42,534 nt of DNA. It comes from a virus. Its lineage: Duplodnaviria > Caudoviricetes. Below the pieces are notes generated by a model. The model did not search any database, had not been told where the DNA came from, and saw only the letters and a program-made list of their open reading frames with translations. Both the position numbers and the translations under genes were made by a program. The DNA lies in the IMG/VR virus record IMGVR_UViG_3300024246_000045, positions 1 to 42,534 of that record. One strand, 5' to 3'. This document shows, piece after piece, positions 12,529-32,631 of this stretch. Numbering within the stretch: the first letter of the stretch is position 1; the number at the start of each line of letters is the position of its first letter.

Positions 12529-13047
12529 TCACCGGCTCCCCTCTGCAGGCTGCGCCGGCAGCAGGCCTCCGAATGTCCCCATGACCTGGTCCATCAGTGG
12601 ACAGAGCACCGTGAAGTTGACGCTCTGACGCTGGTGGTGCCTGCCGTGATAGCGAAGGACGAACCGGAAGTAGGCGGTCCCTGCAAACCAGCGCCCGCGG
12701 GGATAGTGAATCTCGCGGTGAAACCAGCTCCATAGCTCGCCGTGAACCGTGAAGAACGCTGCCAGGACGATCGCCCCTGTGTGCGAGTAAAACCACACGG
12801 GAGCCCAGAAGATGGCCGTGGCGGCGAACATCATCGGGCCGCCCAAGTCGATGCCAACCCACTCACCAGCGGGGTCCTCGCCCGTCCGATATTTTGCGAA
12901 GGGCGCGAACCGGCCGTGGTGCAGGAGATGCTTTTCGAAATACTCGAGCAGGCCGACGATGCGCCCATGCATCATGTACCTGTGACCGAAGTGCTCGTAG
13001 GCGCTCGTGAGCACGTAAGCGAGCGCGAGCCATCCAAGGATCTTCAT
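12529..13047 (-). CDS. Fatty acid hydroxylase / sterol desaturase superfamily membrane protein
   Basis: Histidine boxes EHFGHRYMMH, HLLHH, FHREIH and YHGRHH, plus an NF..L.P..D...GT tail and hydrophobic helices. Confidence 0.82.
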   Translation of the reverse strand: MKILGWLALAYVLTSAYEHFGHRYMMHGRIVGLLEYFEKHLLHHGRFAPFAKYRTGEDPAGEWVGIDLGGPMMFAATAIFWAPVWFYSHTGAIVLAAFFTVHGELWSWFHREIHYPRGRWFAGTAYFRFVLRYHGRHHQRQSVNFTVLCPLMDQVMGTFGGLLPAQPAEGSR

Positions 13048-16842: not shown

Positions 16843-17367
16843 GCACCCTCCCTGTTTTTCTCGCTTCGTTTTTCCAGCGCGCGCCGACGCGGCGACGCGC
16901 TCGGTGAGCGGCGCCTGGCCCTTCTCGCCAGGCCAATTTGTGAGCGCTACGTGATGCAACTTGATGATCTCGTTGGTGCGCGTGTCGACGTCGAAGACGC
17001 ACGAGAAGTAGCGGTACGCGCCGGTGCGGAGATCCTTCGCTCCGTCGTCGGTCCAATCCACACCCGACCACAGCCCGTCATCAAGACCATCGAGTGACGT
17101 GATCCATCCGGCGGCCGGCGCGCGATCGCCCAGGAGCGTCTGGTGTTCCCAATCCCACACGGGATCGGTGCCCTTGTCCTTGTAGTAGCTGAGGACTTCC
17201 TTCTTCGAACGATCGGTGTACAGAAACGTGCCGTCGTCGTAACGGTTCTCGCCGGTTTGGAACAGGCGCACTTTCGCCGGCGGCTCGCCGCCGACCTTCT
17301 CGCGGCGCGTTGACGAGAGGATCACCTCGCCATATCCGCGCGCGGTTCGAATGAACTGCTCGGCCAT
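16114..17367 (-). CDS. Prohead protease/scaffold (Mu gpI-like)
   Basis: WDWEHQT, APAAGWI, W..V.WT..G, YRYFS..F and HVALTN.P motifs. Confidence 0.92.
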   Translation of the reverse strand: MAEQFIRTARGYGEVILSSTRREKVGGEPPAKVRLFQTGENRYDDGTFLYTDRSKKEVLSYYKDKGTDPVWDWEHQTLLGDRAPAAGWITSLDGLDDGLWSGVDWTDDGAKDLRTGAYRYFSCVFDVDTRTNEIIKLHHVALTNWPGEKGQAPLTERVAASARAGKTKREKQGGCMDELMERLMWFLGLPITATHNDARASLQKILDAVPADDQMLLVAEKRGTAKTIGEALGVSKPAVVQVAQKAILDELELPETATLAQAHAKVGDLKTSAAEVVQLRDENKTLKEKLATSSAKTDDDKIALLIQTYRTRVTPAKEAWVRSIAKRHGIEHATEVVKSMAEALPANSERGSDAAANEDVPVTVAQTMRIGSKDVPVDQESARRVERVKAIQAEDPDKFRTFAEAAKELVRREARKK

Positions 17368-18623
17368 CAGTTGGCCCTCCGTGGAACCTTCGTCTGCACT
17401 AAGCGGCCGCGGCGCAGCCCCTCGATCGCCGCGGCGTCGTCCGAGAAAGCGGCATCCATGAGGAGGCCATCCGGCGAGACGTCAGCGACCATCAGCAGCG
17501 CTTTGCCGCCGTCCCCATAGAGAGCGATGAACCGCTTCGAGAGACTGACCGCGCCGGATGCATCACGCCGCGTCACCATCCACGTCTCGAGCGGATCTTC
17601 GAGCGTTGGGCGGATCGCACCGAACCATTGAGGGACGTCCTTCTTCGCTTCGCGCGCGAGATCGCCGGCGTCCAGACCAACCATCTGTTCAAAGGAGCTG
17701 CGCGTGATGACGACGCCGTCACCGAAACCGTCAACGAGAACCGTCTGCGTCGCTCCTTCCGCGATTCCGGCCGCTTCCTGGAAGGATGTCCACGCTTCGT
17801 CGTACTGCGCGAGGTCGGTGACGTCGGCGATCGCGGCGGTGGCATCCGCGGCTACCTCGGGCAACGTTGACGTATCAACGTCGGCCAGCGCCTCGAGGCT
17901 GTAGTCGGCGGCGCTCTTGCCGGGCAGCTCGATCCCGAGCGCCTCGGCGCGATCGGCGAGCCACTTCTCGTCGACCGAAAGAAGGCCCGGTTGGCGATCC
18001 CACCCCGGATCGGGGAGGATGGTCTGTCCCTCGATCACCGGATACTCCATGTCGCCGGCGCTCTCGTAGATCCCGATCGCGCGCGCCTCTTCTTCGGTGA
18101 GCGTGGCCACCTGCAGGTGCCGCTCGGCGTGATGGTTTTCGGGCATCACGTGCTTCTCGATCGGGTCTCCAGCGCGCCAGACCAAACCTCCGAGCTTGCG
18201 GCAGATCGCGCTCGTGCGGGCATCGAGCGGATCGATCGGATACTGGCGGTACGGCCGCTCGGCCAGGATGTCCGGATCGTTGATCTGTTCCCACCGGCCG
18301 GCCGCATACGCGGCGGCGGTGTTGTTGCGCGCGATCAGCTCGAGCCGCTGCGGCGAGAAAAAGAGGCCGCCCTGCTGATCGAGCGTCTTGCCGACCCGGT
18401 CGAGGAACTCCTGATGGGTGAGGCCTTCCGCGATCGCCGCGGTGGCCGCGCTGTAGGCCTCATCGACCAGCGACTGACGGGTCAGCCCGGCGATCCAGAA
18501 GCCGCGCCGCTCGGCCGCGTCCTCGATCGCCGACAGGTCCGGCTGCGTCCCAGGAATCCGGGCCAGTTGGGCGTCCACGGCATACCGAAAAGGCTTGAGC
18601 ATCGGCAACGCGGTGGGGGTCAT
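17367..18623 (-). CDS. MuF (gpF) minor head protein with a C-terminal PBECR-like extension
   Basis: RLELIARNNTAAAYAAGRW, RPYRQY, D.RT and PDPGW motifs, followed by an extra ~170-aa domain. Confidence 0.85.
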   Translation of the reverse strand: MTPTALPMLKPFRYAVDAQLARIPGTQPDLSAIEDAAERRGFWIAGLTRQSLVDEAYSAATAAIAEGLTHQEFLDRVGKTLDQQGGLFFSPQRLELIARNNTAAAYAAGRWEQINDPDILAERPYRQYPIDPLDARTSAICRKLGGLVWRAGDPIEKHVMPENHHAERHLQVATLTEEEARAIGIYESAGDMEYPVIEGQTILPDPGWDRQPGLLSVDEKWLADRAEALGIELPGKSAADYSLEALADVDTSTLPEVAADATAAIADVTDLAQYDEAWTSFQEAAGIAEGATQTVLVDGFGDGVVITRSSFEQMVGLDAGDLAREAKKDVPQWFGAIRPTLEDPLETWMVTRRDASGAVSLSKRFIALYGDGGKALLMVADVSPDGLLMDAAFSDDAAAIEGLRRGRLVQTKVPRRAN

Positions 18624-26228: not shown

Positions 26229-26404
26229 ACCCTCCCGCCCCGACTACAGATTCAAGACCCGCTCGGCGGCGGCGTTCGGTCGTGCGGGGCTTCTGCCTAC
26301 AAACCGCACGAACGAACGTCACCGCGTCATCGATGTGGATAGCGGCGTTGGACGCGCCGCCTCAGCAGTACGGAAGGTAAGGCTTCGAGGTGGGAAGTTC
26401 CAGC

Positions 26405-26463
26405 GACTACGGAGACTACGGTGAATAAAGTGACTACGGTGACTACGGTGACTACGGTGACTA
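26405..26463. repeat. 9-bp tandem direct-repeat array (GACTACGGT), about 6.5 units
   Basis: GACTACGGA GACTACGGT GAATAAAGT GACTACGGT GACTACGGT GACTACGGT GACTA. Confidence 0.92.
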
Positions 26464-26775
26464 ATTCTCGCGTTCCTGGCGGAGCCGCTCGCGCAGCTTC
26501 TTGACCTCTTCCACCGAGAACTTCAGCGTTCGCTTGCGCCAGCCGATCCGTAGCCTCGGCGGGAGCGCGTTTCGCGGATGAAGATCACCCGAGTCGACGT
26601 AGCGGTAGACCGACGAGACCGATACGTCGAGCATCCGCGCTACCTGGCCGGTGCCAATCTCGCGCGACGATGCTTCGACTGCGTTCCTCTTTTCCGGGGT
26701 TCCCGACACTGGTGAAAGTGTAACGCGGAGTGACGCGAGTTCAATTCTTTCGCACCTAACCCCTTCACTGGTCAA
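26461..26775 (-). CDS. Xis/BldC/MerR-like (HTH_17) DNA-binding protein; candidate late-gene activator
   Basis: IGTGQVARMLDVSVSSVYRYVDSGDL...F...EV..L winged-HTH pattern; exact start uncertain. Confidence 0.78.
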   Translation of the reverse strand: MTSEGVRCERIELASLRVTLSPVSGTPEKRNAVEASSREIGTGQVARMLDVSVSSVYRYVDSGDLHPRNALPPRLRIGWRKRTLKFSVEEVKKLRERLRQEREN

Positions 26776-27202
26776 CGTACTTCGTTAGCTGTTGGCGCGC
26801 CGCATCGGAGAGTCTACCTCCCGCCTCGGCATCGGTAGAGTGAATCACGATCACGGCGTCCGCCGCGTTCGGTGCTTCGTTCTTGGATGACAAGATGCGC
26901 ACGGTCGCCGAGTTGTCGCGAAATGTGGTCCCCCACGTTGGAGATTGGCCGCGTTGATCTCCGACGACGAAGTAGCGATGCCCCGTCTCAAGAGTAAGCT
27001 CCGCAGCTCGGCGCAGAAGGAACTGGCCGACTCGATCCGCCGACGTGTATCCGTTGCCCTGAAAGCGAACCTCGTAGACGTACTCGGAGAGCTGGGTTTG
27101 CGAGAACCCACCGGTTAATCCCTTCGCTTGATACGCCGTGCAATCGACAAACACAACCAACCCTATGAGCAGCGCGCTTTGGAGAGTTCTCTTCGTCAAC
27201 AT
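26765..27202 (-). CDS. Lipoprotein (CC0125/CC1285-like family)
   Basis: Signal plus Cys; T.YQ..G..GGFSQTQL..YEVRFQGNGYT..LLRRAAELTL..G..YF motif. Confidence 0.75.
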   Translation of the reverse strand: MLTKRTLQSALLIGLVVFVDCTAYQAKGLTGGFSQTQLSEYVYEVRFQGNGYTSADRVGQFLLRRAAELTLETGHRYFVVGDQRGQSPTWGTTFRDNSATVRILSSKNEAPNAADAVIVIHSTDAEAGGRLSDAARQQLTKYVDQ

Positions 27203-27220
27203 CTTTCCCCCTCGAATGAA

Positions 27221-27259
27221 GAAGCAGCCCACCCCCCGGAAAAGGGAGCGGGCTACTTC
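27221..27259 (-). terminator. Intrinsic terminator closing the repressor-TPR-peptide operon
   Basis: 16-bp stem whose three non-Watson-Crick positions are G-U pairs only on the minus strand, followed by UUCAUU. Confidence 0.75.
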
Positions 27260-27281
27260 CCCGTTTGGAACTCGCAACAGG

Positions 27282-27464
27282 TTACGGCTTCGGGAATGAC
27301 GGATCGTCGGCCGGCTTCGGCATGAGCCCGATTGCCCGGATGATGTGAACTATCCGATCGAGCCAGGACGGATCGTTCACGTCTCGCCGCGGCGCGGCAT
27401 ATACCGGGAAACTGCTGATGAGAATGACGACTAACAGAACCGCAGGCACCAAACGTCGAAACAT
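27282..27464 (-). CDS. Small secreted propeptide (candidate signalling peptide precursor)
   Basis: AAGGAGG SD; Sec signal MFRR-h-region-PVYA; amphipathic pro-helix; C-terminal LMPKP..SFPKP repeats. Confidence 0.8.
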   Translation of the reverse strand: MFRRLVPAVLLVVILISSFPVYAAPRRDVNDPSWLDRIVHIIRAIGLMPKPADDPSFPKP

Positions 27465-27514
27465 TGTTCCTCCTTGCGGTCGGCACTATGCCGATCGACA
27501 GGAGGAAGGCTACG

Positions 27515-28693
27515 TCAGTTTGCTGGAGTGGTGGCATCATGGGTCAATTGCGAATCAACACACCCAGAGACCTCACGAACGAACTCCGGCGTCGCAAGGC
27601 CCTGCCGAGCCAAGTCAACCAAGAGCCCGAGAGCCGTCGCCGCCACGGTGTCCATTCCGACCGCGAGCGCGCGCTCGAACACGTCGCGACAAATGCCGGC
27701 GACATCAACTGACGGATCGTGATCGAGCAACTCCTCGACAAGCGCTAGCCGCGTGAGCACCGCCTCACCAACCATTCCGAGGTCGTCGAAGGTTTCCCAA
27801 GCTGCACGCATCTCAGATTCCGCGTCAACTCCACGTTCTCGAATCGCCAGACGACCCAGAGACCGGAGCATCCTCGCGCGCGGAACGATCAGTCCTAGAG
27901 ACTCATACATCTCTGCAGCCACACCAAAGTATCCTCGCGCAGCAATCGCTTCACCCATCCTTGCGCAGCAATGAGCCATGTTTCCGATTTCACACGCGGT
28001 TGCCTCTTCGTCGTTCGCCGCGATCGCGTCGGCCAGAGACGCGTTGTACAGATCGAGCGCTTCGTCGAAACGCGCAAGGGAGTAAAGGACCGAGGCTTCG
28101 AGTGTCCGCGTTGCTTTTGCCCGCTGAGCCTCGCCGCAGTTTTCAAACTTGGATCGGGCCGCAGCTAGCAACCTCAGAGCGTCGTAGGGCCGCCTGCTCT
28201 CGCACGCCACCGCTGCCATTGCATGCTCAACGATGGCTGTCTGAAGCTCAGTTGCTTCGGTAGCCTTTGCTGCTTGCATGGCCAGATCGAGAACGGCGTT
28301 AGCCTCGTCGAAGTGGCCCAACAATCGGAGCGCGTTGCCCTTCTCCTTCAGCGCTCTACACGTGAGCGCCGGGATCGGGTTAGCCACGCCAGCGCTCACC
28401 GTCGCCGCAGCCTCTACCACGGCTAGCGAAAACTGGGGCTTCCATCGGTAGGAATTCACGTCGTAAGCGTCGAGCAGAGCCATCGCGACGGCCGCACGGT
28501 GGTAACAGGGATTTTCAACCGCCTTCGTGATTTCTTGCGGCGGCATCGCGAGGAGACGATCAGTTACGAGTCGGGCAAATGCGCTCTCACTTGCAGCATA
28601 GCTTGCGATCGTTGGCGCATCGCCGGCCGCGAGCTCGCGCCGCGACTCGAGGACTGCGGCGATTACTACATCAATCGTCTGTCTCGTTAGCAT
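27515..28693 (-). CDS. Tetratricopeptide-repeat-like protein (candidate RRNPP-like peptide receptor)
   Basis: Repeated helical motifs KGNALRLLGHFDEA, ASVLYSLARFDEALDLY, GNMAHCCARMGE..AA..YF..A and ARMLRSLGRL; alternative start at 28792. Confidence 0.85.
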   Translation of the reverse strand: MLTRQTIDVVIAAVLESRRELAAGDAPTIASYAASESAFARLVTDRLLAMPPQEITKAVENPCYHRAAVAMALLDAYDVNSYRWKPQFSLAVVEAAATVSAGVANPIPALTCRALKEKGNALRLLGHFDEANAVLDLAMQAAKATEATELQTAIVEHAMAAVACESRRPYDALRLLAAARSKFENCGEAQRAKATRTLEASVLYSLARFDEALDLYNASLADAIAANDEEATACEIGNMAHCCARMGEAIAARGYFGVAAEMYESLGLIVPRARMLRSLGRLAIRERGVDAESEMRAAWETFDDLGMVGEAVLTRLALVEELLDHDPSVDVAGICRDVFERALAVGMDTVAATALGLLVDLARQGLATPEFVREVSGCVDSQLTHDATTPAN

Positions 28694-29093
28694 GTGTTGT
28701 CGAATCGCCAGGTCCAGGTGATAGGTCTGCTGCGATGCCACCCATCGCTCTAACGCCGAGAGCGAACGCGTGAAGCGCGGTCTTCTGTTCATTGGCTGGA
28801 AGCGTCTCCAGAGTCGCGAGGAACTCCCGAACCATCACCGAGGGCGGTTCACCAGAAGCCTCGACGGCGCGGAGAACTATGCCGTTCGCCCGTCCCTGCT
28901 CGGCCTCTTCGAGAGCAGCGGCAATCCGAGCGAAGTTGTGGCCACCGCCTCTTTTTTCGGTTCGTTTGACCGTGCTCTCGGCGACCCCTGCAAGAACTGC
29001 AACTTCCCTCTGCGAAAGACCGAGCCTCTCCCGAAGCACGCGGATTCCCGAATCGGCGGTCGCGCGCGGGGCTGTCATGTGAGGTGTCAGCAT
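28671..29093 (-). CDS. XRE-family HTH repressor (CI-like immunity repressor)
   Basis: IRVLRERLGLSQREVAVLAGVAESTVKRTE; divergent from the Cro-like/early operon. Confidence 0.85.
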   Translation of the reverse strand: MLTPHMTAPRATADSGIRVLRERLGLSQREVAVLAGVAESTVKRTEKRGGGHNFARIAAALEEAEQGRANGIVLRAVEASGEPPSVMVREFLATLETLPANEQKTALHAFALGVRAMGGIAADLSPGPGDSTTHANETDD

Positions 29094-29167: not shown

Positions 29168-29196
29168 TTGACACGCGGTCACTGTCGCCTTACATT
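29168..29196 (+). promoter_or_regulatory. Rightward early sigma70-type promoter
   Basis: TTGACA-N17-TACATT, with the ATG 7 nt downstream of the -10 box. Confidence 0.8.
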
Positions 29197-29203
29197 AGCT
29201 GAC

Positions 29204-29500
29204 ATGCTACGTTTGCTAGGAGCACTTGATCCTAAATGCTACCCGCTCGCATGCGCCCTCAGGTCACTTCGGCTGAAAACGAAGCTGAGCGTGCGGCAGG
29301 CTGCTGCCAAAGCCAGGATCTCGGCGGCATACCTTTCTGATCTGGAGCGAGCGAAGCGCCCCGGTGCCAGCACTCACGTTCTTGATTCTCTCTCGAGAGT
29401 GTTCTCCGTGGACAGGGGCGTGCTGCGGAGGCTGGACAAGCAACAACGGCTAGCGCTGGCTTGGTCGGCAGTTTCGGAGCTTGAGCGGGAGCTCGCATGA
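29204..29500 (+). CDS. Cro/Ner-equivalent XRE HTH regulator
   Basis: LRSLRLKTKLSVRQAAAKARISAAYLSDLERAKR. Confidence 0.85.
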   Translation: MLRLLGALDPKCYPLACALRSLRLKTKLSVRQAAAKARISAAYLSDLERAKRPGASTHVLDSLSRVFSVDRGVLRRLDKQQRLALAWSAVSELERELA

Positions 29501-30062: not shown

Positions 30063-30409
30063 AGCGTCGCAACAATCAGCCCGCGGACCTCCTTCATGAG
30101 CCTCAGAAGTACGCCCCGGACAGCAGCCGTCCGTGTCTCGCTTGCGGCCACGCCGTTCCTCACAACAGCAGCGACGGCGACGGCCCTGGCGGCGGTTGCT
30201 CGAGCGTGACGTTCACCAAGGAGTGCTGCGAAAACCCGCACACACGCTACAGCGCGAAGTGCGCGAAGCGTGGCGCAATCGACAGTTGCTGGATTTCGCA
30301 GACGCCCTGCGAATGCACCGAAGACGACCGCGTGATGGCCGACCTGTACGCGCACGTCGCAACCCTCAATAGCGCGATCGCGAAGGCGGCGTTGGTGTTC
30401 ATCCTATGA
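30059..30409 (+). CDS. Cys-rich hypothetical protein
   Basis: CLACGH..H and further Cys residues; GGAGG SD; ATGA coupling to the transposase. Confidence 0.6.
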   Translation: MKRRNNQPADLLHEPQKYAPDSSRPCLACGHAVPHNSSDGDGPGGGCSSVTFTKECCENPHTRYSAKCAKRGAIDSCWISQTPCECTEDDRVMADLYAHVATLNSAIAKAALVFIL

Positions 30410-32631
30410 CCGGACTCGCCAAAGTGATCTGGCTTCCGACCTCCGTCGTTGCCGAGCTGCAGCGTCCCCGCCCGACGAGCGACCGCGCGATCCGGATGCG
30501 CGTCGAGCGCGGCGTGTACGGCCAGGAGGGGAAGGGCTGGCGCCGCGGCGCGATCGGCCGTAATTCGAACGGCATCGAGATCGCGCTCACGGCGCTATCC
30601 GCCGAAGAGCAGCTCGCCTTCTACGACTGCGACAGCGCCCCCGAGCATCAGGTTGCGGTGCAATCGGCCGGCCTCAAGGTTGTCGATGACGCGCTGGCGC
30701 GGCGCGCTCTGGCCTGGGCGAACGCCAACGACAACCAGCGGGCACGAGCGACGCGAAAGAAAGCCGCGGTAAAGGATCTGGAGCTGGCTCTTGCCGATCC
30801 TTCGCTCTCGCGGGGCAGTGTGACGGCGACGAAGGAGCGCATCGCCAAGGCTCACTGCACCTCGATCGACTCGCTGCAGCGCTGGTACGACGCCTACCTC
30901 GAGTACGGCATCGACGGCCTGGTCGACTTCAACGACGGCTCGGCGAGACGCGGGAAGACGGTGCTGCCGAAGGCGGTCCGCACGTTCTTCCGCGAGACCT
31001 GGAAGAGCGCCCCGTCGACCTCGGCCGCGATCACGGACGCGCGCCTCTACGCGTTTGACGCCGACATCAACCTGGCCGGGGTGGCCGACGACGCCTTCTA
31101 CCGCTACGCCGAGACGTTCCCTGAGCTCGAGCGCCGCGCGAACGGCGACGAACAAGACGAGCCCACGTGGATGCCCTCGACGCGGCGCGACTACACGGGT
31201 CTGGCCGCGATGAAGATCGTGCAGTCGGATCACCACATCTCCGACGTCTTCGTTCACTGCGGCGATCCGGAGTGCCGCAAGGGTCATCGGGTATGGATCA
31301 CGGTCTTCATCGACGTGCGCTCGCGCATGGTGCTGTCGTGGACGGCATCGCTCGACTATCCGAACTCGCGGACGATCCTCAAGACCTTCCGCGCGTTGGT
31401 CGACGAGTTCGGGTTGCCGGAAGGCGTCTACATCGACAACGGCAAGGACTATCGGAAGGCGTTCGGGAAGGCCACGCGCCAGTGGGGCGCGCCGGCGATC
31501 AACGAAGGGCACTTCAACAACCTGCTCGCCGCGCTGAGTCTGAAGGCCATCTTCGCGACGCCTTACCGCGCGCAGTCGAAGACGATCGAGCGCCTGTTCG
31601 GAACGTGGGTGCGGCGGATCTGGTCGACGTCACCGGCCTACGTCGGCAAGCTCGGCAAGCGCAGCGACCGGGTGACGAAGATGTTCAAGAGCCCCGAGCT
31701 GCTGCCAACGATCGAGCGGTTCCACGAAGAGCTGGCCACCGAGATCTCGCTCTACAACACCGACCGCCGTCACCGCGGGCAGGGGATGGGTGGCCGCTCA
31801 CCGCAGGAAGTCTTCCACGCCACAAGGCCCGCCGAGCCGCGCATGCCGGAGTCCACCGGGTTCGCGCTCGTCTTCTGGCAGCACTACGTGCGCATGATCC
31901 GCGGCTGCGCGGTGACGATCGGGCCGGACCGGTACCGGATCGAAGCCGAGAGCGTCGGGTTCGACTTCGAGGGCAAGTACGTCCAGATCCTCGTCAACCC
32001 CGAGGACGTGCGGCGGGCTATCGTGCTCACTGGCTGCGTCCATTGCAGCGAGAAGGCCCGCCGCGAGCAGATCCTCGGCTGTGGGTGCGCCGGCAAAGGG
32101 AGCTACCTGTGCGAGGCGGTGTTGTGGGCGCCTTCGACGCACAGCTTCGACGACCCGATCACGGCGGAGAACAACCGCGAGATCAAGCGGCTCGAGAAGT
32201 TCTGGAAGGCGCGCGCGTATAGCGGAGATCCGCGTGCGAAACAGATCGTCGAGGCGTTCCGCGGGCGCCGGCATGAGATCCAGCGGCGCATTGCCGCGGT
32301 GCGTGAGAGCGAGCAGCAACCGATGGTCGCCACCGGGGGCGGGGCGACGCTGATCCTGCCGCACTCGCACGTCGTGCGCGAAGTCGAACGGACGCGCGCG
32401 CTACTCGCCAACCCGCTGGGACTCACATCCGCGGAGCGGCTGACGATCGCCACCGTGGAGCGGCCATCGATCGCGAAGCTCGAAGCGATGGTGCCCTCAC
32501 CGCGGCTCAGGCCGGCCGCGATGCTCATCGACGTCGAGGGGATCGACGCGGCGCTCGCGGAGCTGACTCAGGAGAACAAAGGATTCGGCGGCGATCACGC
32601 CGCCGATGTAACGAAAGGAGAAACCCCATGA
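30406..32631 (+). CDS. Mu-type DDE transposase (MuA)
   Basis: N-terminal DNA-binding and HTH region (SLQRWY..Y...GIDGLVD); catalytic QSDHH, YIDNGKDY and KTIERLF; YN...H.G..G.SP. Confidence 0.95.
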   Translation: MTGLAKVIWLPTSVVAELQRPRPTSDRAIRMRVERGVYGQEGKGWRRGAIGRNSNGIEIALTALSAEEQLAFYDCDSAPEHQVAVQSAGLKVVDDALARRALAWANANDNQRARATRKKAAVKDLELALADPSLSRGSVTATKERIAKAHCTSIDSLQRWYDAYLEYGIDGLVDFNDGSARRGKTVLPKAVRTFFRETWKSAPSTSAAITDARLYAFDADINLAGVADDAFYRYAETFPELERRANGDEQDEPTWMPSTRRDYTGLAAMKIVQSDHHISDVFVHCGDPECRKGHRVWITVFIDVRSRMVLSWTASLDYPNSRTILKTFRALVDEFGLPEGVYIDNGKDYRKAFGKATRQWGAPAINEGHFNNLLAALSLKAIFATPYRAQSKTIERLFGTWVRRIWSTSPAYVGKLGKRSDRVTKMFKSPELLPTIERFHEELATEISLYNTDRRHRGQGMGGRSPQEVFHATRPAEPRMPESTGFALVFWQHYVRMIRGCAVTIGPDRYRIEAESVGFDFEGKYVQILVNPEDVRRAIVLTGCVHCSEKARREQILGCGCAGKGSYLCEAVLWAPSTHSFDDPITAENNREIKRLEKFWKARAYSGDPRAKQIVEAFRGRRHEIQRRIAAVRESEQQPMVATGGGATLILPHSHVVREVERTRALLANPLGLTSAERLTIATVERPSIAKLEAMVPSPRLRPAAMLIDVEGIDAALAELTQENKGFGGDHAADVTKGETP

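Follow-up and report, generated by a model that had tools for sequence, protein, structure and literature searches.

Between the two arms of a Mu-like prophage lies a short gene that appears to encode a secreted peptide, next to the gene for a TPR protein. Which part of this peptide might act as a signal, which protein might receive it, and what could the phage gain from the exchange? An initial annotation had read the product as a propeptide with a signal peptide, an amphipathic helix and a Pro-rich C-terminal signal, possibly in two variants. We followed up this reading across the window, by which we mean the whole 42,534-nucleotide stretch analysed (positions 1 to 42,534 of IMG/VR record IMGVR_UViG_3300024246_000045), and among related loci of phages and bacteria. 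The 60-aa sequence quoted in that annotation is encoded exactly at 27282-27464, but on the minus strand; the plus strand is closed there.

Domain and phage-family profiles identify the window as a Mu-like prophage with a host UvrD gene at its right end. The rightward arm carries transposase, MuB, Gam and GemA genes from a Cro-like XRE gene onwards, which is itself preceded by a sigma-70-like site (29168-29196), and the leftward arm carries the head and tail genes. Between the arms, on the minus strand, follow in order genes for an XRE-HTH protein, the TPR protein, the peptide, a lipoprotein-like product and an HTH_17 protein (Table 1). The XRE-HTH gene overlaps the TPR start by 23 nt, and a gap of 50 nt separates the TPR gene from the peptide gene. 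In calling these products repressor, Cro-like or late activator we rely on general knowledge and gene position, and the lipoprotein label is likewise a putative one; the HTH_17 product may be a late activator, with the adjoining 9-bp repeats as its candidate sites. Such arrays stand directly 3' of the HTH_17 gene both in the window (26402-26464) and in locus L002 (10832-10867), with units that differ between the phages. Elsewhere in the window, a gene among the tail genes (12529-13047) resembles a fatty-acid hydroxylase, slightly below the Pfam cut-off, and the product of 17367-18623 is a minor head protein of the Mu gpF type whose C-terminus carries a PBECR2 nuclease-like domain. Of three soil DNA runs with matches, one is probably the source of the window; their other contigs gave no useful coverage of the peptide gene. 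Soil run X1 also contains a second phage, with about 80% likeness across the TPR, HTH and Cro region.

Which bacterium harbours this prophage? The flanking UvrD is 96, 93, 91, 89 and 79% identical to its counterparts in five of five Thermoanaerobaculia-type genomes, the 96% belonging to genome G002, and a profile of the TPR family recovers 708 representatives at E 0.001, with look-alike clusters from Acidobacteriota. On these two grounds the host is likely a soil bacterium of the Thermoanaerobaculia (Acidobacteriota). Acidobacteriota are diderm bacteria, that is, they have two membranes.

Table 1. Coordinates of the features discussed, in the numbering of the window.
Feature	Position	Strand	Basis
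Late-gene side: HTH_17 gene (26461-26775) with 9-bp tandem repeats (26402-26464), ahead of late genes	26402..26775	-	
Small lipoprotein-like gene 3' of peptide gene, start uncertain	26765..27277	-	homologues 47% identical, same place, in 3 related phages
Propeptide gene, 60 aa	27282..27464	-	Shine-Dalgarno AAGGAGG; relatives 83% and 82% identical
Putative mature core DDPSFPKP, N-terminal boundary approximate	27285..27308	-	conservation; same octamer in three chromosomal cassettes
Linker LMPKPA, putative processing region (second copy of the initial annotation)	27309..27326	-	alignment with relatives
Predicted amphipathic pro-helix, W34-G46	27327..27365	-	family-level signal
Predicted Sec/SPI signal peptide, residues 1-23	27396..27464	-	inspection and hydropathy
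Leader hairpin pairing the peptide-gene Shine-Dalgarno	27467..27507	-	predicted fold
Cytoplasmic TPR protein, 392 aa, putative receptor	27515..28693	-	Pfam TPR_12; AF2 model; start from relative P0005
XRE-type HTH gene, putative prophage repressor and TPR target	28671..29093	-	profiles; same place in 7 other phage records
Divergent Cro/Ner-like XRE gene, first of early operon	29204..29500	+	profile matches
Mu-type transposase, then MuB, Gam, GemA	30406..32631	+	profile matches

The peptide gene is preceded by AAGGAGGAA, which holds a full Shine-Dalgarno sequence. A word-based protein search returned two close relatives of the peptide and one of the TPR protein; no Pfam or PHROG family matched the peptide, and its Atlas model is of low confidence (pLDDT 0.56), with structure matches that name no family. 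Both the signal peptide and the Pro-rich tail of the initial annotation are borne out, the former as a predicted feature: by inspection it comprises a basic n-region, a hydrophobic core with a Kyte-Doolittle value of 3.9 over nine residues and a cleavage site between the two alanines of V-Y-A-A, and the cleavage-site alanine is invariant in 41 family peptides. In the same 41 peptides P58 is invariant and P60 nearly so. For the amphipathic helix the picture is mixed, since its hydrophobic moment of 0.74 is reached by 525 of 5000 shuffles and hence is not significant in the window peptide alone, but amphipathicity exceeds that of the peptide's own shuffle in 37 of the 41, so that the helix stands at the level of the family. 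Upstream, a predicted hairpin begins 7 nt past the TPR stop (z -2.4, matched by 2 of 200 shuffles) and might couple translation of the peptide to that of the TPR protein; predicted folds pair the peptide ribosome site also in L042, L123 and L161, but not in G001, G432, G433 and G434. No intrinsic-terminator match was found 3' of the peptide gene.

Across the family the precursor follows a constant plan of signal peptide, charged spacer, amphipathic helix, linker, acidic pair and Pro-rich tail, in which the helix sequence varies freely and the last prolines are fixed. A check proposed with the initial annotation was whether small ORFs downstream of TPR homologues end in a conserved PxP; 60 of the 107 distinct family tails do (K at x in 40, H in 10, R in 7), 37 are of PPG type and 10 are others. 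Receptors of one clade tend to go with similar tails, although such grouping is also expected from kinship and is not by itself a sign of co-evolution. The claim that the locus encodes a propeptide beside a TPR gene, with the C-terminal PxP tail as its conserved and receptor-tracking part, is supported.

What became of the two signal variants? The repeated 3-mers DPS and PKP are indeed present, underlain by DNA repeats of 10 and 9 nt, and exceed chance by a narrow margin (20000 shuffles, p about 0.02, the repeats having been chosen post hoc). As a conserved duplication they do not hold up: the 83% and 82% identical relatives retain one and none of the repeated 3-mers, respectively, and at least two occur in just 3 of 59 family peptides. 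NDPSW has become NEPSW in both close relatives, one of which has LMPTP and FPNP. LMPKP, for its part, aligns with the linker, which reads LLPSP, FLPTP, LHPVP or LMPTP in relatives; a linker PxP accompanies 8 of the 60 PxP tails, with S, T, V or K at x and K solely in the window peptide. Most cores open with an acidic pair, which LMPKP does not have, nor does it have a free C-terminus. The family does contain true multi-core precursors (L006, L015, L016, L018, L058), in which whole xRIxxPPG-type units are repeated; these define a repeat unit of about eight residues, against which LMPKP counts as linker. Phage Rap-Phr systems with duplicated pheromones are on record (PMC11343458), and a duplicated precursor that releases LMPKP-type and SFPKP-type peptides, as Phr3T/Phr105, could draw on that precedent, on the multi-core relatives and on the DNA repeats. 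The decay of the repeats at 82-83% identity and the variable linker position make it highly improbable, however, and the homologues largely refute it. We consider it likely, from the alignments, that the signal is one C-terminal core, approximately DDPSFPKP.

The TPR protein beside it is the candidate receptor. Its longest ORF runs to 28792 (425 aa), with the likely start placed further in by comparison with P0005. It matches Pfam TPR_12 (E 1e-6; 29.3 bits, slightly below the 30.1 cut-off), gives no HTH profile match, contains no zinc finger (HxxxCxxC is absent) and is without signal peptide or membrane segment. The AF2 model is an all-helical repeat (pLDDT 91). Its top fold matches are eukaryotic, namely APPBP2 (Z 24.1) and Pins/LGN (Z 23.6), and Foldseek puts LGN first; bacterial matches comprise Rap phi105-peptide (Z 21.2; rmsd 4.0, 288 aligned), RapLS20 (Z 19.3; PDB 6t3h), NprR (Z 18.8), PlcR (Z 18.1) and AimR (Z 15.0). 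Structural alignments give 8-14% identity to RRNPP receptors, and sequence matches are to generic TPR profiles only. Because the best matches are eukaryotic, the modelled fold is to be read as of a peptide-binding type that is not specific to RRNPP.

If the three genes form a unit, we would like to see them together elsewhere. The trio of XRE-HTH, TPR and peptide recurs in eight phage records: the window, G001 (identical with locus L002, which also lies inside the MAG G045), L042, G430, G431, G432, G433 and G434. In all eight the XRE-HTH gene lies directly upstream of the TPR gene, and the phages themselves vary: six carry a Mu transposase, G431 an integrase, and L042, which is non-syntenic, a terminase. 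The TPR of G431 is split into two ORFs. Peptide genes are tandem in four records and convergent in four. L002 and L042 were found by receptor alignments and five of the eight records by an upstream DNA motif (described below), a scan for which in viral contigs gave 120 loci, 40 of them with little flank. Family peptide and TPR occurred together at five of these loci, among them G001 for a second time, and also at G434. Scanned singly against viral contigs, neither the window TPR nor the peptide brought up relatives, and alignment searches A4 and A7 brought up none either; a metagenome scan returned the window locus alone and a Cro scan G001 alone.

The eight phage tails are all different and all end in P-[KHR]-P (DDPSFPKP, DDPQYPHP, IFPSIPKP, IDYTPPKP, EGVVIPRP, IDPVLPKP, DEPTFPRP, DEPSWPRP). 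Two contrasts suggest that the core follows the receptor rather than the rest of the precursor. G001 and G433 have precursors 69% identical outside the core and receptors 18% identical, and their cores (DDPQYPHP and DEPTFPRP) differ at all four variable places; G433 and G434 have receptors 56% and precursors 37% identical, and their cores share six of eight residues. Precursor and HTH-TPR have been reshuffled between phages, as might equally be seen if the peptide had the host as its target. The phage receptors fall into three groups forced by starred branches, of which that of G432-434 shifts between trees. Multiple independent receptor captures were considered and not established, as the AU test does not reject a common clade (p 0.12).

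Where might such a cassette have come from? Most TPR proteins of the family carry an N-terminal HxxxCxxC finger (zf-HC2) and follow an ECF-type sigma gene: among 100 upstream ORFs scanned (of 138 extracted), 69 have sigma-70 domains, 7 are XRE-HTH, 1 is RHH and 23 match nothing. The window TPR sits in a well-supported clade mostly without the finger, which is present in relative P0008 and in the phage receptors of G430 and G431. A near-clade TPR profile is matched at 1e-40 in 81 of the 401 genomes of a class sample (a tally that takes in unpublished G175 and G179), and profile matches to the family number 44 in G002 and 103 in G003. A small ORF with Shine-Dalgarno and signal peptide lies within 400 nt of the TPR 3' end at 81 of 128 distinct genes (131 minus 3 dropped for short flank) versus 6 of 296 control windows, under a crude filter that misses some peptide genes and admits a few spurious ORFs. 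No candidate peptide emerged at 47 of the 128; L073, an HTH-TPR locus, is one of these, and so is most of one large ECF clade.

Chromosomal cassettes come in several arrangements. At L089, L092, L106, L125, L127, L121 and L114, two family TPR genes surround an ECF gene with no filter-passing peptide. Among L006, L015, L016, L018, L058 and L022 are chromosomal precursors with 2-6 repeated cores and one locus at which three tandem peptide genes follow a single receptor. At L074 (5083-10192), XRE-HTH, TPR and TPR genes face a single peptide gene, which at the same time follows an ECF/zinc-finger TPR pair, and two receptor types may there share one peptide. An apparent convergent peptide-gene remnant stands behind the ECF-like/zinc-finger TPR pair of L077 (about 2640-2740), with a tail that, read by hand, ends like the G001 core; the zinc-finger TPR of L077 is 61% identical to the phage receptor of G001.

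How might these parts work together? At a probability of roughly 0.55, we favour the reading that the XRE-HTH, TPR and peptide cassette is an arbitrium-like density switch in which a single exported signal favours lysogeny. The precursor would be exported by Sec to the periplasm, where proteolysis between the helix/linker and the acidic pair would free the core; an Opp/Dpp-type transporter would then re-import it, and its free C-terminus would bind the TPR groove. SBP_bac_5 proteins are near-universal: all five host-type genomes have them, as do 11 of 14 controls. Since the TPR protein shows no recognisable DNA-binding domain, it would act on the overlapping XRE repressor: empty, it would anti-repress, as RapLS20 acts on Rco, and accumulated peptide would keep or restore repression and so favour lysogeny. 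The cassette would likely have been built from the host ECF sigma/zinc-finger-TPR/peptide cassettes, the sigma factor being swapped for a repressor. More tentatively, phages may have rewired these peptide-controlled anti-sigma cassettes onto a repressor, probably more than once, and this phage may use a peptide identical to a host-lineage signal both to gauge kin numbers and to send signals to, or eavesdrop on, the host's ECF network.

Imagine instead that the peptide mainly targets the host, mimicking a chromosomal ECF/zinc-finger-TPR peptide, and that the phage TPR may hear the host's. One chromosomal ECF cassette lineage, with cores of D[DE]Px[FWL]P[KH]P type, is present at 1e-120 in 32 of 124 family genomes (unpublished G175 included), and exact DDPSFPKP, together with a PxP linker, ends its peptide in G006, G199 and G049 (3 of 30 loci), an identity with a rough probability of 1.3e-5 per peptide under a profile of 39 other PxP tails. 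G002, the closest sampled relative of the host, has EDPSFPHP (six of eight), and the Pro at -6 of this clade is found in six of eight phage cores versus 6 of 39 background tails. The receptors of the three cassettes share 23% identity with the phage TPR, and AU tests reject a joint clade (p 2e-12; with the whole zinc-finger-less clade, p 0.03). The same octamer despite such receptors makes capture or cross-talk possible: a peptide gene captured from the host lineage is likely on this sequence evidence, and cross-talk between phage and host peptides is possible. Yet the three genomes are close relatives, their identical cores count as one event, and a recent functionless capture would explain the identity equally well. 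Moreover, in G045, the one lysogen sampled with both, the prophage core DDPQYPHP matches none of the 12 other family peptides seen there, the orthologous cassette ending DDLTWPKP. We therefore think a mainly host-directed peptide unlikely, while noting that it is compatible with the density switch as an added layer. G045 also holds an orphan family peptide ending DDPSLPKP, seven of eight with the window core (L148; G045:C79:8145-8300), which lies among chemotaxis-like genes with no family TPR within 1.5 kb.

A DNA motif bears on the same question. GGTAGGGR-N15-19-CWCTCCT, with a bipartite form GGTAGGGA-N15/16-CWCTCCT, has its first half in 35 of 102 peptide leaders versus 62 of 5000 control windows, and stands 25-51 times per genome in G002, G006, G045, G088 and G199 versus 0-1 for the reversed pattern. 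This host motif is kept upstream of six of eight phage peptide genes, in keeping with a host target, and is absent from the window, where the best profile score is 8.5 and shuffles reach 16. Besides TPR/ECF cassettes and peptide genes, short genes with no relation to them also have it upstream; these genome-wide copies rule out a cassette-specific ECF promoter, and the motif reads as either a global promoter or a quasi-palindromic operator.

Might the signal never reach another cell? A peptide exported from a diderm cell may never leave the periplasm, and could cycle between periplasm and cytoplasm to report envelope integrity, protease state or elapsed time, its loss inducing the prophage. 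The diderm host, the ECF-type sigma partners of the chromosomal cassettes (69 of 100 upstream ORFs) and a cationic helix that could keep the precursor on the membrane all speak for such a cell-autonomous loop. Eight different tails in eight phages, with receptor-tracking diversification, are what kin-specific communication predicts instead, and leave the loop rather improbable; tail diversity would also be forced, though, by insulation among the dozens of paralogues per genome (44 in G002, 103 in G003). If the peptide were unprocessed and active on the membrane or in the periplasm (as superinfection exclusion factor or toxin), with the TPR protein as chaperone, immunity factor or bystander, then the conserved amphipathic helix (37/41) and a lipoprotein-like neighbour, at the accessory-gene position of Mu-like phages, would fall into place. 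We would not expect the helix sequence to be free and the last prolines fixed, however, nor several precursors to repeat the tail unit alone, and a TPR protein with neither signal peptide nor membrane segment would encounter only peptide that has come back into the cytoplasm; this makes such activity very unlikely. Finally, the trio might be passive cargo, a fragment of one of the dozens of cassettes per host, acquired by transposable phages with no role in the phage cycle, of which degraded versions are known (L073, L077, the split TPR in G431). Its fixed place behind the XRE gene in 8/8 records, including an integrase phage and a terminase-bearing record, and its intactness in seven of the eight render this barely credible.

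How does the proposed density switch compare with known systems? As set out in PMC10075063, the RRNPP signature combines a propeptide of 10-100 aa, Sec secretion, a receptor of 250-500 aa, TPRs and adjacent genes. Four of these five are found here (60-aa propeptide, 392-aa receptor, TPRs, adjacency), and Sec secretion corresponds to a signal-peptide pattern seen by inspection and hydropathy; RRNPP(A) further presumes a Bacillota host, and ours belongs to the Acidobacteriota. The same source notes that the AimR HTH escapes public profiles. Nor does the window TPR qualify as a ZAS (zf-HC2) anti-sigma factor, having no HxxxCxxC and an XRE gene upstream. In the passages covered, PMC7826278 mentions, among Acidobacterial ECF groups, none whose anti-sigma is a soluble TPR protein, and a 2026 review (PMC13389391) describes peptide communication in phages of Gram-positive hosts, the only hosts for which the literature searched reports it. 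The phage-form cassette is undescribed in the literature searched, although the viral tables of PMC10075063 could hold related pairs. It shows no demonstrable descent from RRNPP receptors. If it works, phage peptide communication would extend across the membrane divide to transposable phages of a diderm soil phylum, and the cassette would show how such switches arise from anti-sigma factors. The eight phage cores and about 100 host cores would provide short defined peptides, usable in E. coli without host culture, and the system offers a way into the unexplained large-scale spread of TPR-peptide cassettes in Thermoanaerobaculia.

The arbitrium system of Bacillus phages (AimR-AimP-AimX; PMC13389391, PMC13220667, PMC6458997) likewise places a TPR protein and a small propeptide with phage-specific tails at the switch of a temperate phage. 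In the window, however, the receptor has no HTH profile match, the XRE-HTH is encoded separately, the fold match is weaker (AimR Z 15.0), the phage is transposable with an Acidobacteriota host, and no aimX was identified: downstream of the peptide, where aimX would be expected, stand the lipoprotein-like and HTH_17 genes. Phage Rap-Phr (phi3T, phi105) offers the best bacterial fold match (Z 21.2) and a phage peptide that may touch host circuits (PMC11343458), but the duplication in the window peptide is not conserved and the targets would be an XRE repressor or ECF circuit rather than Spo0F/ComA. RapLS20 of plasmid pLS20, a peptide-inactivated anti-repressor of Rco (PMC7641744), belongs to a system (RapLS20-Phr*LS20-RcoLS20; fold Z 19.3) that resembles the window in combining, on a mobile element, a TPR protein apparently without HTH, a propeptide that in the window is predicted to be exported, and a repressor encoded by a gene of its own. 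It differs in that the window has a diderm host, a phage rather than a plasmid, about 10% identity, a TPR from a zinc-finger anti-sigma family and a precursor with an amphipathic helix and a Pro-rich acidic tail. The chromosomal ECF sigma/zf-HC2-TPR/peptide cassettes share the TPR family and the precursor plan, and one lineage has the exact core; in the phage form, by contrast, an XRE-HTH replaces the sigma factor, and the TPR of the window is without zinc finger.
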